Positions 57,036 through 64,000 of a stretch of DNA of 64,000 bases are shown piece by piece. Position 1 is the first letter of the stretch; each line of letters opens with the position of its first letter. The notes beneath the pieces were generated by a model. It did no database searches. It was not told the DNA's origin and saw only the letters and a list, made by a program, of their open reading frames with translations. The position numbers and the translations under genes are program-made. This DNA comes from an uncultured Acidobacteriota bacterium (lineage in GTDB: Bacteria > Acidobacteriota > Thermoanaerobaculia > UBA5066 > Gp7-AA6), in assembly GCA_963764715.1 (NCBI GenBank), contig CAVXTP010000026.1:22346-86345 (forward strand). Direction: 5' to 3'.

Positions 57036-57686
57036 TCAGGACTGACCCTCCCGCCGACTCACCTTCTCCGCCCACCGCTTCCAGGCGGCCGACATCTGCG
57101 GGACCGCGATCAGGCGCGCCGCTTCGGCGCGGTCGCGGGTGTAGATGCGGAAGACGTCGCGGACCGAGAGGCCGTGATCGGGCTTCGAAAGAAGGCGGAC
57201 CTCGTCCCCGGCGCCGACGTCGCCCTCCACGACGATGCGCAGGTACGCGCCCGGGCGGAGCGCCTCGGTGAAGAGGCGGACGAACCCGGGATCGTTCATC
57301 CGCACGCCCAGGCGCCAGCACGGCACCCGCGGCTCCGACACCTCGAGGACCGTCGTGCCGACCGCCCAGCGTTCGCCGACGAGCGCGTCGTTGACGGCGA
57401 CGCCTTCGGTCGTCAGGTTTTCGCCGAACTCGGCGTTTGCGAACGGCCGGCCCATCTTCGACTCCCACCAGCGGGCGTCCTCCGACGCGTAGGCGTAGAC
57501 CGCCTTGTCGGGACCGCCGTGCGCTTCCCGATCGGCCTGCTCGTCTGCCGCCAGGTTGACGCCGGCGACGGCGACCCTTCCTGAGACCGGAAACTTCCAG
57601 ATCGCGCTTCGGGCCGGGCGCCCGTGGTAGTCGAACTCCCGCGGCCCGCCGACGTTGACCGAAAGCACCGTGCCGACCGCAGCCAC
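57036..57686 (-). CDS. MOSC domain protein (YiiM-like) with 3-alpha tail
   Basis: HGGPDKAVYAY, FGENLT, EPRVPCWRL, RPGAYLRI. Confidence 0.9.
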   Translation of the reverse strand: MAAVGTVLSVNVGGPREFDYHGRPARSAIWKFPVSGRVAVAGVNLAADEQADREAHGGPDKAVYAYASEDARWWESKMGRPFANAEFGENLTTEGVAVNDALVGERWAVGTTVLEVSEPRVPCWRLGVRMNDPGFVRLFTEALRPGAYLRIVVEGDVGAGDEVRLLSKPDHGLSVRDVFRIYTRDRAEAARLIAVPQMSAAWKRWAEKVSRREGQS

Positions 57687-57735
57687 TCGCGCCTCCCCCG
57701 ATTCGTTCCCGGGCCTCGAAGCTTCGACCGACGAG

Positions 57736-58029
57736 TCAGCGCCCCCGCCGGATCGCTTCCACCTTCCGCTCGCAGTCCTCGTCGATTCGCTGCCGGTCGA
57801 TCCGGTAACCGTTCTCGGCCTTCTCGCGCTCGGCGGGATCGTCCGTCTGCTTCAGGGCATCCCGGAAAAGGATCTCCCGCTCGGCGAGCCGCGCGGCGGC
57901 GACCCGTCGAACCTCGGCGATCTCCTCCTTCTGCTTGGCGCTCAGCGGACCCTTCTTCGTTCCCGCGGGATCCGCGGCGCGAAGGCGTTCCATGGCGAGC
58001 TCGTAGGAGGATTTCGGTTGTTTGCCCAT
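57736..58029 (-). CDS. Small helical hypothetical protein
   Basis: KSSYELAMERL, LSAKQKEEIAEVRR coiled-coil. Confidence 0.65.
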   Translation of the reverse strand: MGKQPKSSYELAMERLRAADPAGTKKGPLSAKQKEEIAEVRRVAAARLAEREILFRDALKQTDDPAEREKAENGYRIDRQRIDEDCERKVEAIRRGR

Positions 58030-58118
58030 GGGGGGCATGCTATCCGACCGGCACCGGCCGTTCCCGAACCCGTGGACGGAGAACGGCCCTCCCCAATAGA
58101 CTGCCGGCAGGTTCTCCG

Positions 58119-59282
58119 ATGACCGTCAACTCCAGAGCCACCACCGTCGCGATGTCGAAGGCCTCGCGCGCGGCGCGCGGGAAGGCGCTGCTGCTCCCGC
58201 AGCAGGTCATCACGAGCCCCGAGACGCGGCTCCAGTATCGGATCGACAGTCTGCTCGGCCAGGGAGGGTTCGGCCAGGCTTACCTCGCGAAACGGGTGAC
58301 GCGCTCCCTCGCCGTCCCGTCCGTCGTCGCGATCAAGGCGAGCGAGCACATCGACGGGTGGCTCCGCGAGGCCTATTTCGGACAGCGTCTCGCGGGGCAC
58401 GCCCGGGCGATCCGCGTCTTCGACGCGTTTCCCCTGATGCGGGACGACGGCAGCGTTCTCTACTGCCTGGCGCTCGAGTACGCGAAGCACGGCGACCTGC
58501 GGTCCTATCTCCAGCGCACCGGGAAGGGGTGGGCCGAGAGGACCGCGCGGCGCGAGATCGCCGGGATTCTCGAGGTCCTCGGGCGGCTCCATCGAGGTCA
58601 GCTGCTCCACCGGGACCTGACCCCGATGAACGTCTTCGTCTGCGAAGGAGTCAGCCTGAAGCTCGGCGACTTCGGCATCGTGCGGGACCAGAGCGACCGG
58701 CGCGGCATCGACGCCCGCACGCTGAACCCGTGGGGAGTCCCGAGCGACATCCTGTCGGGCGCGGCGCCCAAGTGGCAGGCGCGCGACGACGTCTACCAGG
58801 TCGGGCAACTCCTCGGCATGCTCGTGAAGGGAACCGCGGCGGCCCGGATTCGCACCGGCGAGGTCCGCCGCCTGCGCTGCTCCGATCACCTCAAGGAGAT
58901 CGTCTATCGCTGCATCGGCGAGCGCCGGAAGCGCTACGAGAGCGCCCACGAGTTGATCGACGCGCTGACCCATCCGCCCGCGGCGCTCAAGGTCGGCCGG
59001 CTGAAGTCGCTCAAGGGGGCGCATCTCGCCTTCACCGGCATCCTGACGACGCGCCGCAGCGAGGCCGCCCGCGCCGCGCGCCGCGCCGGCGCAACCGTCC
59101 ACGGCTCGCCGTCCGCGAAAACGACGGTCGTCGTCCGCGGCCGCCCCAACCCGCTCCAGGCCGCCGGAAAAGACGCCGGCCGGAAGCTGCTGGAGATCAA
59201 GCGGCTGCGTGAGAAGGGACACCGCATCACCCTGCTCAACGAGACGCAGTTCTGGCGGCTGGCGGGGCGGAAGAGGAGCTGA
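58119..59282 (+). CDS. Ser/Thr protein kinase fused to a C-terminal BRCT domain
   Basis: LGQGGFG, VAIK, HRDLTPMN, DFG, DDVYQVG; then LKGAHLAFTG..GATV..SAKTTVVVRG..ITLLNETQF. Confidence 0.82.
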   Translation: MTVNSRATTVAMSKASRAARGKALLLPQQVITSPETRLQYRIDSLLGQGGFGQAYLAKRVTRSLAVPSVVAIKASEHIDGWLREAYFGQRLAGHARAIRVFDAFPLMRDDGSVLYCLALEYAKHGDLRSYLQRTGKGWAERTARREIAGILEVLGRLHRGQLLHRDLTPMNVFVCEGVSLKLGDFGIVRDQSDRRGIDARTLNPWGVPSDILSGAAPKWQARDDVYQVGQLLGMLVKGTAAARIRTGEVRRLRCSDHLKEIVYRCIGERRKRYESAHELIDALTHPPAALKVGRLKSLKGAHLAFTGILTTRRSEAARAARRAGATVHGSPSAKTTVVVRGRPNPLQAAGKDAGRKLLEIKRLREKGHRITLLNETQFWRLAGRKRS

Positions 59283-61042: not shown

Positions 61043-61936
61043 TCAGACCTGGACTTCCGGCCTCCGGGCTTCAGGGCTGCCGCCGGCTTTCCGCTTCTCG
61101 GCCTTCTGTTCCTGCCTCGTCCCGATGAACTCCAGCAGGTCCGCGTTGACCCGATCCTTCAGTGTCGTGCACATCCCGTGCGGCGCGCCCTCGTAGACCT
61201 TCAGGATCGCGCCCGGAACCAGGTTCACCGTGCGCCTCGCCGTCACGTCGATCGGCACGACCTGGTCGTCGCTGCCGTGGAGGATCAGCGTCGGAACGTC
61301 GAACTTCTTCAGATCCTCGGTGAAGTCCGTTTCCGAGAACGCCTTGATGCAGAGGTACGACGCCGCGAAGCCCGTCAGCGTGCTCTGGAGCCAGAACGAG
61401 GCGCGCACGCCCTCGGAGGCCTTGGCGCCCGGCCGGTTGTAGCCGTAGAACGCCTCACAGAAATCCTTCCAGAACTGGGCGCGGTCGGCGGCGATCGTCG
61501 CACGGATGCCGTCGAAGAGCTCGATCGGCATTCCGCCGGGATTCGCAGCCGTCTTCAGAAGCCCCGGCGGGACGGCGCTGATGAGCACCGCCTTGGCGAC
61601 GCGCTTGGTGCCGTGCCGGCCGATGTACCGGGTGACCTCGCCGCCGCCGGTCGAGTGGCCGATGTGAATCGCGTCCTTCAGATCGAGCTCCTCGACGAGC
61701 GCCGCGAGATCGTCGGCGTACGTGTCCATGTCGTTGCCGTCCCAGGACTGGCTCGAGCGGCCATGGCCGCGCCGGTCGTGGGCGACGCAGCGATAGCCGT
61801 GGGACGCCAGGAAGAACATCTGATCTTCCCAGGCATCGGCCGTGAGCGGCCAGCCATGGCTGAAGACGATGGGCTGACCCTTGCCCCAATCCTTGTAATA
61901 GATCTGCGTGCCGTCTTTGGTTGTGATGAAGCCCAT
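61043..61936 (-). CDS. Non-heme haloperoxidase-like alpha/beta hydrolase
   Basis: [35 protein letters not shown]. Confidence 0.9.
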
Positions 61937-62090: not shown

Positions 62091-63050
62091 TTGGCCACCG
62101 CTGGCGCCCATCCACGAGGACCGGTACTCGGCAACGCCATTGGCGCTTCCAGGGCAGCCGAGCGTCCGCTCACTCCCCCGATTCAGCTCCTGCGGCACGG
62201 AAGGCGAACCCGGTTCCTGGATGCCGCTCCCAGGCTGTCGAGCAGCCCGGTCCGGTGGCGCCAGATTGCCGTCGAGGAGTATGCGGTCCCGGCCTGTCTC
62301 ATCGAGCGTCACGAGCACCCGGACGTCTTCCTGCACATCGTTTTGACCGGGTCCGTCAAGTACGAGGTGAGCACGCGAGGCCGGTCGAAGCGGTTCGACG
62401 CGATCCCGGGAACGACGTTCATCCTGCCGCGCGGGACGGTCGACGAGATCCGATGGGAGGGTCCGACTCGCCGTCTGGCCGTCGCGATCGATCCTGACCT
62501 GCTGGCAGGAGCCTCAAACGAGACGATGGGCCGCGAGGACGTCGAGCTCGTCGAACATTGGGCCCTGGTCGATCCCCACCTTGCAGCAATTCTTCAGGCC
62601 ATGAGAGCGGATCTTGCCGATGGCTCCCCCGCCGGCCGGCTGTACGGCGAATCGCTGGCGAATGCTCTGGCCGTGTACCTCGTGGGTCGTTACGGCGCGC
62701 GACCCGCGGCGCTCCGGAGTTCCAAAGGAGGAATGCCCGGACGTCGACTCCGGAGAGTCCTCGATTACATCGGCGAGAACCTGACGAGGGATCTGGGCGT
62801 GAGGGAGCTCGCCCGTGTCGCCGGAATGAGCCCTCATTACTTTTCGGAGCTCTTCCGAAGAAGCGTGGGCCGCCCTCCTCATCAGTATGTTCTGCTGCAA
62901 AGAATCGAACGCGCCAAGGAGTCCCTTCGAAACCCGAAGCGCTCCGTCCTCGAGGCCGGCTTGTCGGCGGGCTTCGAGAACCCCAGCCATTTCGCGCGTG
63001 CGTTTCGCCGGGTCGTGGGTGCGACCCCAAGACAGTTCCGAGCGGGCTGA
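62091..63050 (+). CDS. AraC family transcriptional regulator (start uncertain)
   Basis: LYGESLA, LRRVLDYI, MSPHYFSELF, GFENPSHFARAFRR. Confidence 0.88.
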   Translation: MATAGAHPRGPVLGNAIGASRAAERPLTPPIQLLRHGRRTRFLDAAPRLSSSPVRWRQIAVEEYAVPACLIERHEHPDVFLHIVLTGSVKYEVSTRGRSKRFDAIPGTTFILPRGTVDEIRWEGPTRRLAVAIDPDLLAGASNETMGREDVELVEHWALVDPHLAAILQAMRADLADGSPAGRLYGESLANALAVYLVGRYGARPAALRSSKGGMPGRRLRRVLDYIGENLTRDLGVRELARVAGMSPHYFSELFRRSVGRPPHQYVLLQRIERAKESLRNPKRSVLEAGLSAGFENPSHFARAFRRVVGATPRQFRAG

Positions 63051-63073
63051 CCTGGCCGGGGGTTGAAGAGCGG

Positions 63074-64000
63074 ATGGACAAACCTCGCATCTTCCTCGGT
63101 TCGTCGGGCAAGCAGGCGAAGCTGCTCCAGGCGCTCACGCGCGGCCTCGAAGAAGTCGCGCGGGTCGATCCCTGGACGACCTCCTTCAATCCCGGTACGA
63201 CGACCCTCGAGCGCCTCGTCGAGCTCACGCACGAAGTCGACTTCGCCGCGTTCGTGTTCGCTCAGGACGATTGGACGGCCCCCAGCCCGCCGGCGCCGGC
63301 GTCGACCGGCTCGGGCCAGGCTTCGCCCCGGGACAACGTCGTCTTCGAGGCGGGCCTCTTCGGCGGCGTCCTCGGGATGCGCCGAACTTTCATCCTCCAC
63401 GCCAACGGTTCGAAGCTGCCGACGGACTTCCTCGGCCTGACGTGCATCCGCTACGGTGACGGCGCGCTCGCGGCGGAGGTGCGCGCCGTGAACCAGAAGC
63501 TGCGGGAGGCGATCGAGAGAGAAGGGCGCCGCGCCCGCATCGAGGGCCTGTGGTGGCAGTTCTCCCTCACCGAGCGCAGTCGGGAGGAGCCGTCGGCCGT
63601 GAGCCTGCTTCGGATCGCGCGGGACCGCGACGGCGCCCTCGAGGTCACCGGCCGCGCCTGGCAGGAAGACGGCAAGCTCTCCGCCAGGTACTGGAGCGAA
63701 GCGTCGAAGGAGAAGAAGGATCCCGCGGGTGTCTTCTACTTCTTCCATGCAGAGCGGCCCATCGACCCGGATGCCCCGGAGTACGAAGGGACCGGAGAGA
63801 TCCGGCTGGAGAACGCCGATCGCGCGTCCGGCTACTGGACGACTCGCGCCGACGGGCCGGTGAAGGTGAACAAACGGACGGTCGGCGTCTACCTGCGCGC
63901 CGAGCCGGAGGACCTGACAGTCCTCGATGGACGCGACAATCGGCAACGCGTCAAGTTGATCGCGGACCGGCTCAAGCACTGGAAGTCGATCAAGAGCGCG
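63074..64000 (+). CDS. CAP12/Pycsar-type TIR domain fused to a beta-barrel domain; runs off the window end (absent from the ORF track)
   Basis: Manual translation: MDKPRIFLGSS..DFAAFVFAQDD..PRDNVVFEAGLF..KLPTDFLG, then IEGLWWQF..GVFYFF..EGTGEIRL..ASGYWTT; no stop before 64000. Confidence 0.82.
   Translation, partial: MDKPRIFLGSSGKQAKLLQALTRGLEEVARVDPWTTSFNPGTTTLERLVELTHEVDFAAFVFAQDDWTAPSPPAPASTGSGQASPRDNVVFEAGLFGGVLGMRRTFILHANGSKLPTDFLGLTCIRYGDGALAAEVRAVNQKLREAIEREGRRARIEGLWWQFSLTERSREEPSAVSLLRIARDRDGALEVTGRAWQEDGKLSARYWSEASKEKKDPAGVFYFFHAERPIDPDAPEYEGTGEIRLENADRASGYWTTRADGPVKVNKRTVGVYLRAEPEDLTVLDGRDNRQRVKLIADRLKHWKSIKSA

Follow-up and report, generated by a model that had tools for sequence, protein, structure and literature searches.

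We analysed a 64,000-nucleotide stretch of DNA from an uncultured Acidobacteriota bacterium (hereafter the window; nucleotides 22346-86345 of contig C26), at whose 3' edge lies a gene for a protein, P0001, that joins an N-terminal TIR domain to a C-terminal beta-barrel. Translation of the window gives a stop-free open reading frame (ORF) of 309 codons on the forward strand (63074..64000), nested in a longer frame that is also open at its 3' side (62558..64000, +). The frame is open because the assembly contig ends there, at nucleotide 86345, the last of the window, and not for a biological reason. Indeed, full-length relatives found with residues 150-309 are overwhelmingly 305-311 amino acids long, and several end in WKSIKSA exactly as P0001 does. 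Since relatives of this length share its C-terminus, P0001 is complete at residue 309 and lacks the stop codon alone, so that no remainder of the gene on another contig is needed. Similarly, the ATG at 63074 is the true start, because 27 of 37 aligned sequences (P0001 counted among them) open with MDKPRIF or MEKPRIF. An earlier reading of this DNA from its letters alone (the sequence-only reading) had noticed the same frame, unlisted, of at least 309 codons and lacking a stop, and we recovered it together with every motif cited in it: RIFLGSS, DFAAFVF..DD, PRDNVVFEAGLF, G-x-W (GLWWQ), FYFF, GTGEIRL and GYWT.

The two domains and their relatives

The N-terminal half matches the PF10137 clade of TIR domains, to which the sequence-only reading had also assigned it. 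The Pfam match spans residues 5-127 and profile positions 1-117 of 119 (76.9 bits against a gathering cut-off of 24.7; E 1.6e-21), and the PADLOC models for PycTIR and for the 'Effector TIR' of the cyclic-oligonucleotide-based antiphage signalling system (CBASS) match P0001 over the TIR part only; within the 310-position TIR-effector model PDLC00729, the match spans only positions 2-143. When a profile of the 37-member family was run against the PDB, the closest solved relatives were TIR-STING and PycTIR (SfSTING 7un8, E 5.6e-20; PycTIR 8jsj, 7.6e-19; TIR-STING 9lmq, 2.4e-18), again across the TIR region only. The full-length AlphaFold2 model (predicted local distance difference test, pLDDT, 76.4) was also best matched by TIR-STING, both in Foldseek (9lmq and 7un8; E 5e-10, 29-33% identity over ~150 residues) and in VIA, a Foldseek-independent structure search over 48,161 chains that counts rows within one Z unit as tied (Z 14.0 and 12.9). 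We found that PRDNVVFEAGLF of P0001 aligns to PRDNVVFEFGLF of SfSTING chain 7un8_A, with PRDNVVFE identical in both. This segment contains Glu92, within an N-V-x-F-E-x-G motif, at a position that we take to be the catalytic residue of TIR NADases; all 81 aligned copies retain it, and internal stops occur in 0 of 80 copies. By analogy with these enzymes, the TIR domain of P0001 would cleave NAD+ with Glu92 as its catalytic residue. A TIR of the Thoeris ThsB type is not indicated, as PF08937 is not matched by P0001 and no conserved partner gene occurs across 80 loci (see below).

Since Foldseek of the whole model gave, apart from TIR matches, only EF-Tu-like two-domain hits that we judged spurious, we modelled the C-domain (residues 151-309) alone, with a 41-row alignment. 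The isolated AlphaFold2 model (pLDDT 89.8; predicted template-modelling score, pTM, 0.84) consists of eight antiparallel strands followed by two helices, and the strands, which lie between residues 158 and 275, bear out the beta-rich C-terminal half described from the letters. The lack of transmembrane helices claimed there also holds: by Kyte-Doolittle 19-residue means we found no transmembrane segment in P0001 (maximum 1.16, compared to 1.79-2.08 in three Cap15 proteins). Across the 37-sequence alignment, Trp, Tyr, Arg and Glu are prominent among the invariant residues, and conservation extends into the C-terminal helix region (D280, G286, D288, L295, I296, L300).

Residues 150-309 of P0001 match no Pfam family. 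In VIA, the C-domain model matched two designed barrels (Z 11.7, 11.6), the Yersinia Cap15 receptor 7n34_A (Z 10.7; root-mean-square deviation, rmsd, 3.3, 101 of 108 aligned, 15% identity), OprF (Z 10.0), avidins (Z about 9) and lipocalins (Z 6.6-7.6). With the full-length model, Cap15 7n34 reached Z 11.9 (rmsd 3.0, 104 of 108 aligned), and no natural chain scores higher in either model; in the C-domain model the Cap15 match stops at residue 126 of 159. The top Foldseek rows for the C-domain (E 5e-3 to 3e-2) were de novo barrels, lipocalins, avidins and Cap15, among which, in the rows listed, Cap15 had the highest target-normalised template-modelling (TM) score (0.63-0.64, rmsd 4.3-4.4), compared to 0.33-0.45 for most lipocalin rows (rmsd 7-12 Å, E 5.8e-3 to 3e-2). 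An ESM Atlas search scored everything at 0.80 or lower, with Cap15_CD_rec at rank 8 (0.76), a lead only. On these models, the fold of the C-terminal half as a small eight-stranded up-and-down barrel is a firm prediction; its assignment to the Cap15 family is not firm.

A two-copy prediction of the barrel domain gave a symmetric dimer with a score of 0.42, compared to 0.10 for the best of three controls; on a calibration that is rough, since a custom alignment was used, this mark is reached by 20 of 30 solved homodimers and 1 of 23 single chains. The runs agree in at least 82% of contacts with a partner pLDDT of at least 81, and the predicted interface involves strands 4-5, including the invariant Y222. 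These predictions support, rather than show, barrel-barrel self-association, and their passing the mark could stem from likeness to solved barrel assemblies.

Does the barrel share its ancestry with that of Cap15? By eye, P0001 and Cap15-family proteins have in common a G-x-W barrel start (LNG-x-W at the equivalent place in the latter, a likeness that hhalign does not align) and a strand-7 G-x-Y-[YW]-T-x-R. We compared the 41-sequence C-domain alignment to a Cap15 barrel profile made from three Cap15-family proteins from genomes and 44 loci from metagenomes (a 44-46-sequence barrel alignment), and obtained hhalign scores of 24.3-25.6 (P about 0.002, probability 13-15%), with strands 5-7 in register and GYWTTR of the P0001 family placed on Cap15 G-x-YWT-R. 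None of 150 column shuffles of the Cap15 alignment reached these scores (mean 10.9, sd 1.8, maximum 15.1), and the reversed Cap15 profile scored 14.0. With another match-state setting the score was 21.2-22.5 (P 0.01), and with only three Cap15 sequences P was 0.17. An OmpA_membrane control profile (27 sequences) scored 10.7 (P 0.76), and the Pfam lipocalin families matched neither P0001 (E<=1) nor any of 41 family members (E<=10). The Cap15 signal in these alignments seems real but weak, and not cleanly separable from that of other calycin-like barrels; common descent of the P0001 barrel with the barrels of two-transmembrane (2TM) receptors of the S-2TMbeta type is, in our estimate, slightly better than an even bet. 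Tyr and Thr residues numbered 181 to 187 are likely nucleotide contacts in EcPanE, according to a preprint (PMC13640721). From this numbering, and from the nearness of the motif to the C-terminus in three other Cap15 proteins, our guess would be that these contacts fall in G-x-Y-[YW]-T-x-R.

The barrel also has distant yet certain relatives outside the PF10137 fusion (hhalign E 2.9e-58). In P0236 (from a Maribacter metagenome-assembled genome, MAG), P0276 and P0277 (221-248 amino acids), two N-terminal hydrophobic helices precede the barrel and a C-terminal helix. These three, the only such sequences found and with no Pfam family recorded, carry a Cap15-type layout on a P0001-type barrel. In P0238 (328 amino acids) and P0241 (450 amino acids), a TIR_2-family TIR is followed by one hydrophobic segment (19-residue hydropathy 2.0-2.2) and then the barrel; should that segment cross the membrane, the TIR would face one side of it and the barrel the other, in a layout like that of Toll-like receptors. 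The architecture of the distant relatives hints, as an independent pointer, at Cap15 kinship. We also note five gene calls of 174-175 amino acids (P0009, P0043, P0049, P0107, P0116) that hold the entire barrel at 75-80% identity and no TIR annotation; these could be miscalled starts or genuine barrel-only forms.

Table 1. Positions of the TIR-barrel gene, its parts and three upstream genes in the window
Feature	Position	Strand	Basis or remark
TIR-barrel protein P0001, 309 aa	63074..64000	+	Stop codon past contig end; relatives 305-311 aa, same C-terminus
TIR domain, CAP12/PycTIR clade, residues 1-150 including helix 132-150	63074..63523	+	Pfam, PADLOC, Foldseek, VIA, PDB profile search
Glu92 codon GAG in PRDNVVFEAGLF, putative catalytic glutamate	63347..63349	+	Aligned to SfSTING 7un8_A; Glu in 81/81 copies
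Predicted soluble eight-stranded up-and-down beta-barrel, Cap15-like shape, residues 151-277	63524..63904	+	AlphaFold2, VIA; no Pfam family
G158-L-W160-W161-Q162, first barrel strand	63545..63559	+	G158, W160, W161, Q162 invariant in 37/37 aligned sequences, distant ones included
G253-Y-W-T-T-R258, strand 7	63830..63847	+	Resembles Cap15-family G-x-Y-[YW]-T-x-R; hhalign in register
Two predicted C-terminal helices (278-285, 289-307), residues 278-309	63905..64000	+	AlphaFold2 secondary structure
AraC-family regulator (cupin-type AraC_binding + HTH_18)	62091-63050	+	Stop 23 nt before TIR ATG
Chloroperoxidase-like alpha/beta hydrolase	61043-61936	-	Upstream of TIR-barrel gene
Large Ser/Thr protein kinase	57624-59282	+	Matches PADLOC PD-T4-6 kinase models

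A widespread, mobile gene standing alone

A search with residues 150-309 yielded 6781 candidates, 6355 of them cluster representatives with E<=0.001. Clustering of the barrel at 50% left 366 representatives, mostly fragments; the best 150 of these are 65-450 amino acids long, and in the full-length ones the barrel is C-terminal. Gene copies that are 70-97% identical occur across at least ten phyla, which include Acidobacteriota, Gemmatimonadota, Pseudomonadota (among them Mesorhizobium, Luteimonas and Woeseia), Nitrospirota, Rokuibacteriota, Myxococcota, Actinomycetota and Planctomycetota. In a maximum-likelihood tree of 81 rows there were 22 phylum changes, compared to a minimum of 9, although the tree was a quick search only and MAG binning errors could produce part of this mixing. 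Three cross-phylum sister pairs are well supported (97, 98 and 99 in the Shimodaira-Hasegawa-like approximate likelihood-ratio test, SH-aLRT), and the twelve Mesorhizobium copies form one clade, as do the ten Gemmatimonadales copies.

Presence within groups is patchy. Among 121 Mesorhizobium species genomes we found the gene in 16. With the window's own genome excluded, it turned up in 14 of 43 genomes of its genus, in 1 of 5 that represent the family's other genera and in none of 32 from the order's other two families. Copies from the same genus are 73% to 97% identical and as divergent as those from different phyla. Two genomes (G555, G557) carry two copies each, and decayed copies occur in two others (G419, C3:380209-381128; G532, C14:56607-57479), one of them split in two pieces with a TGA and the other having an internal TGA and missing its first 20 residues. 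With its patchy presence, divergence within genera and decayed copies, the gene behaves as a dispensable, horizontally moving chromosomal gene, and it is under strong purifying selection. Conservation is higher in the TIR half than in the barrel (mean identity 80% compared to 71%; 61% and 41% of positions at least 95% conserved).

A contig scan of species-representative genomes gave at least 599 pattern matches, at least 525 of which encode a relative, and we analysed the best 80 loci. All-against-all clustering of the 3954 ORFs within 5 kb revealed no conserved neighbour in these loci beyond the gene's own shadow ORFs, and on this basis we rejected a conserved partner gene. The largest neighbour cluster, of mixed alpha/beta-hydrolases and kinases, occurs at 30 of 80 loci in scattered positions. 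The nearest plausible gene on each side was picked by a heuristic based on G+C content at third minus second codon positions (GC3 minus GC2), which succeeded at 75 of 80 loci per side (5 without a pick). At E<=1e-10, PADLOC models match 5 of these 150 neighbours: two Ser/Thr kinases, one ABC ATPase, one methyltransferase and one SIR2-TIR protein.

The gene has no visible signal synthase of its own. As the sequence-only reading had stated, there is no cyclase among the upstream genes of the window; these genes also include no SMODS protein. The two closest relatives (97% and 89% identity) likewise have no cyclase downstream, and Pfam shows no nucleotide cyclase family among the 150 picked neighbours. 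A genome-wide search for PF18144 (SMODS) came up empty in the own genome (96.8% complete), in all five carrier genomes of other phyla and in all 81 related genomes, of which 16 are carriers. This search was positive in control genomes; PF18144 misses some nucleotidyltransferases of the cGAS/DncV-like type (CD-NTases), and PycC-like and mCpol-like cyclases were not part of the genome-wide search. Thus, two of the places where the signal source had been expected, downstream of the window and, as a CBASS cyclase, in trans, are both disfavoured, and a CBASS source of the signal is unlikely. We also set aside cyclic di-AMP (c-di-AMP) as a universal ligand, since a search of 5 carrier genomes revealed the DAC family in only 2.

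A candidate sensor-effector and its alternatives

P0001 does not qualify as a Cap12 TIR-STING, as a PycTIR or as an S-2TMbeta protein, since it lacks a defining feature of each; it most resembles TIR-STING in layout and the beta-PNP effectors in idea. With CBASS Cap12 TIR-STING (SfSTING 7UN8; 9LMQ/9LMR) it has in common the TIR clade (TIR 30-33% identical, PRDNVVFE shared), an N-terminal TIR with a C-terminal sensor, a length of ~310 amino acids and, as expected logic, sensor-driven TIR assembly. However, its sensor is an all-beta eight-stranded barrel with two helices and not a STING domain, TIR-STING chains align to the TIR only, and no CD-NTase lies in its operon or, by the PF18144 search, its genome. 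PycTIR (8JSJ) is of the same clade, but its TIR is C-terminal (chain residues 154-304 of 311; PADLOC positions 150-287 of 288) whereas that of P0001 is N-terminal, and P0001 has no cyclase among the neighbours described above. The other half of PycTIR is a cyclic-nucleotide-binding domain. Compared to Cap15, OptE and PanE (S-2TMbeta, PF18153; 7N34), P0001 has a compact eight-stranded barrel of the same size and topology, a similar G-x-W start and strand-7 motif, and rare barrel relatives with two N-terminal hydrophobic helices. In contrast to them, it has a TIR fold in place of transmembrane helices at its N-terminus, an enzyme and not a membrane disruptor as its output, two extra C-terminal helices, no PF18153 match and no adjacent nucleotide synthase.

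The available text of one report describes the S-2TMbeta barrel as 'obligately fused' to its 2TM element (PMC12657218). In another report, the beta-PNP effectors of PanDA place a Cap15-type barrel on a soluble nucleotide-degrading enzyme instead of transmembrane helices; that enzyme is a purine nucleoside phosphorylase domain and adjoins a minimal diadenylate cyclase, whereas P0001 has a TIR and no cyclase (PMC13640721). Going by this description and not by barrel sequences, beta-PNP is the nearest published architecture in spirit. Haloarchaeal standalone TIR-SAVED likewise combines a TIR NADase and a nucleotide sensor and, as its report states in the portion available, can defend without a cyclase of its own by means of a host-made nucleotide, a precedent for a TIR-sensor effector that is independent of a cyclase; its sensor is a Rossmann-like SAVED domain and not a barrel, and it normally belongs to a type II CBASS operon (10.1101/2025.06.19.660554). 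We found no description of a TIR-barrel fusion in the literature searched, which left subscription papers and supplements outside its scope, so that a prior mention is possible; the claim of a different sensor-effector pairing agrees with this. One systematic TIR survey, by its accessible text, removed standalone TIR proteins (10.64898/2025.12.03.692087).

TIR NADases fused to nucleotide sensors (STING, SAVED or cyclic-nucleoside-monophosphate-binding domains) are known, and so are Cap15-type barrel sensors. The pairing of TIR and barrel, above all as a lone gene without a signal synthase, lies outside Pfam, PADLOC and the literature searched. The family is large, whether counted by its cluster representatives or by the matching stretches in species-representative genomes, and since it occurs in cultivable Mesorhizobium it is experimentally tractable. 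The identity of the ligand would reveal what a cyclase-less nucleotide-type sensor detects, and bears on how signalling immune systems arise from free-standing effectors.

We give about an even chance (roughly 0.5) to the reading of P0001 as a TIR NADase encoded by a single gene, in which oligomerisation is driven by the barrel, the binding site of a small ligand. P0001 would thus be a self-contained sensor-effector, in which the TIR cleaves NAD+ and the soluble barrel acts as the switch. The barrel would bind a small molecule, most likely nucleotide-derived, and its barrel-barrel association would change; this would assemble (or disassemble) the TIRs, whose activity would need head-to-tail assemblies. 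Loss of NAD+ would then arrest the cell, most plausibly as abortive-infection defence. TIR-STING activity requires sensor-driven filament formation, and PDB entry titles show fibres. Since the system has no dedicated synthase, the ligand would be made by an infecting phage, by a housekeeping enzyme or through damage, and the strong conservation of the sensor across phyla favours a universal small ligand over a fast-evolving phage protein. Cap15-type barrels are reported, in the parts of the sources available, to bind nucleotides in a way that shifts barrel-barrel association in either direction, the ligands being cyclic dinucleotides in CBASS, 2',3'-c-di-AMP in Panoptes, c-di-AMP in PanDA, and 2',3'-cUMP and GpU>p in Cas13b-linked systems (PMC12657218, PMC12657230, PMC13640721, PMC13692257). 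Gating of P0001 by a cyclic nucleotide is itself purely conjectural, and a role in immunity is suggested by family precedent and distribution rather than by gene context.

Several observations weigh against this reading. As to the barrel, nothing was found by Foldseek at E<=1e-3 for the C-domain, de novo barrels outscore Cap15 in the VIA lists, OprF/OmpA-type barrels (Z 10.0-11.4) are within 1 Z unit of Cap15, i.e. tied, and avidins (Z about 9-10) lie 1.5 to 1.9 Z units under it. The hhalign probability against Cap15 is just 4-15% across settings, a Lipocalin_2 control profile (25 sequences) scores 19.3 on the GxW half (P 0.05), compared to the 21.2-22.5 of Cap15, and the subgroup bearing transmembrane helices aligns to Cap15 at P 0.04 out of register. 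In addition, PF18153 (Cap15_CD_rec) matches neither P0001 at E<=1 nor, at E<=10, any of 41 family members, in a search in which the HMMER filters drop most matches above ~0.1. Of the Cap15-like barrel predicted by the sequence-only reading, the soluble eight-stranded shape with Cap15 as its best natural match stands, and Cap15 leads the listed Foldseek rows by TM-score; the homology is weak. The barrel is also unusually conserved for an immune sensor (mean 71% across phyla), which fits a universal small ligand and equally a non-immune role. The context of the gene speaks on the same side. According to Pfam, the picked neighbour (75 downstream, 75 upstream) differs at almost every locus, being mostly a metabolic or housekeeping gene and often on the opposite strand; four of the five PADLOC-matching neighbours have generic kinase, ABC or methyltransferase domains; and a defence-island context is lacking. 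The sequence-only reading had said that homologs without association with defence genes would count against it, and what we see comes part of the way to that. Finally, with the patterns used we found no relatives in 2.9 million viral contigs (20 pattern matches, all unrelated), and no full-length copies in 72,556 plasmids (9 records, TIR-only, below 60% identity).

One alternative is that the gene does not serve immunity: P0001 would be a physiological hydrolase of NAD+ or nucleotides, with a calycin-like barrel that binds a metabolite (perhaps hydrophobic, as lipocalin ligands are) and adjusts NAD+ turnover or dormancy in soil bacteria. The metabolic and housekeeping neighbours, few of them defence-like, and the very high conservation agree with such a role, as do the lipocalins among the best Foldseek rows (E 5.8e-3 and up), the weak alignment of Lipocalin_2 to the GxW half, and the recurrence of an alpha/beta hydrolase upstream in 11 of 80 loci. 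Moreover, its place in the chromosome is conserved in Mesorhizobium, at a single position flanked by an O-antigen ligase-like gene on one side and a short-chain dehydrogenase on the other. However, its presence is patchy even within genera, same-genus copies diverge to the cross-phylum level, two copies have decayed, and the lipocalin matches are poor compared to the Cap15 match in both rmsd and TM-score. To our knowledge, the characterised members of the PF10137 TIR clade are immune effectors, which also counts against a non-immune gene. Overall, we consider this rather unlikely. Less likely still is a guard of the Panoptes type, in which a constitutive host nucleotide would keep barrel and TIR off until phage sponges or nucleases deplete it and free the NADase. 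Cap15-type barrels can act in the inhibitory direction, as described in the available parts of two reports (PMC12657218, PMC12657230), and the lack of a linked synthase together with high conservation across phyla fits a ligand that every host makes. But c-di-AMP is not universal among the carriers, the decoy synthase of Panoptes and PanDA always adjoins its effector, unlike here, and our data do not indicate a direction of regulation.

We also considered that P0001 might be an orphan effector of CBASS or of the pyrimidine cyclase system for antiphage resistance (Pycsar), its barrel gated by the product of a CD-NTase or PycC encoded elsewhere in the genome. Its TIR clade is that of CBASS Cap12 and Pycsar PycTIR, and the best natural fold match of its barrel is a CBASS receptor, but the absence of PF18144 from the own genome, the carriers of other phyla and the related genomes, and of cyclase families from the 150 neighbours and from downstream of the closest relatives, makes this quite improbable. 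If, on the other hand, the barrel were a module for protein recognition or constitutive oligomerisation, it would bind a phage protein directly or just hold the TIRs together, with no small ligand. The symmetric barrel dimer is indeed predicted without a ligand and well above the best control. Direct sensors of phage proteins, however, usually diversify, whereas across ten phyla 41% of the positions in this barrel show at least 95% conservation; the invariant set rich in Trp, Tyr, Arg and Glu is as expected of a ligand pocket; and a permanently assembled TIR would probably be toxic. We regard such a module as very improbable.

The preferred reading of a ligand-switched TIR NADase may be taken a step further, in a tentative form that we find doubtful: a Cap15-type receptor barrel would have moved from its two-helix membrane anchor onto a TIR NADase, giving a one-gene, cyclase-free immune sensor-effector that reads a small molecule of any infected bacterium and hence works in any host. 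Because that ligand would be present in any infected bacterium, the system would be host-independent, and could so have reached at least ten soil phyla while staying 70-80% identical. By analogy, candidates for the ligand would be 2',3'-cyclic-phosphate products of RNA cleavage, as for the Cas13b-linked 2TMbeta proteins, or the level of a housekeeping second messenger.

Neighbouring genes

The upstream genes of the window encode an AraC-family regulator, an alpha/beta hydrolase, a dodecin, an epoxide hydrolase, a Ser/Thr kinase, a MOSC protein and a metallo-beta-lactamase (Table 1 gives three of them). In 11 of 80 loci (L002, L004, L011, L030, L039, L040, L055, L069, L074, L075, L079), the 2.1 kb upstream of the TIR-barrel gene hold a chloroperoxidase-like hydrolase 58-92% identical to that of the window; it is never found downstream. 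These loci occupy at least five separate places in the gene tree and belong to several phyla, and the own genome has just 3 such paralogues. This recurrence exceeds what chance would produce and may reflect joint transfer or a functional link.

The AraC-family regulator is paired with the TIR-barrel gene at a spacing of 26-28 nucleotides in 5 of 80 loci, all of them close relatives, and the pairing is broken up in L003; co-transcription of the two genes is possible, in this lineage only. Large Ser/Thr kinases that match the PD-T4-6 models of PADLOC, some with TPR or PD40 repeats, also lie within a few kb of the gene elsewhere (L002:11279-13507, L003:13443-15653, L030:9096-11768, L063:1742-3445), and their recurrence may be chance because these phyla are kinase-rich. 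The sole clearly defence-like neighbour of the 150 was found in a Steroidobacteraceae MAG, where a gene for a 460-amino-acid SIR2_2 + TIR_2 protein (L048:9055-10437, +) starts 131 nucleotides downstream of the homologue. As an example of the canonical layout, at L083:895-2526 (-) a comparator Cap15 gene (196 amino acids, 2TM and barrel) lies directly downstream of a 345-amino-acid ORF that, read from position alone, holds the classical slot of the CBASS nucleotidyltransferase.

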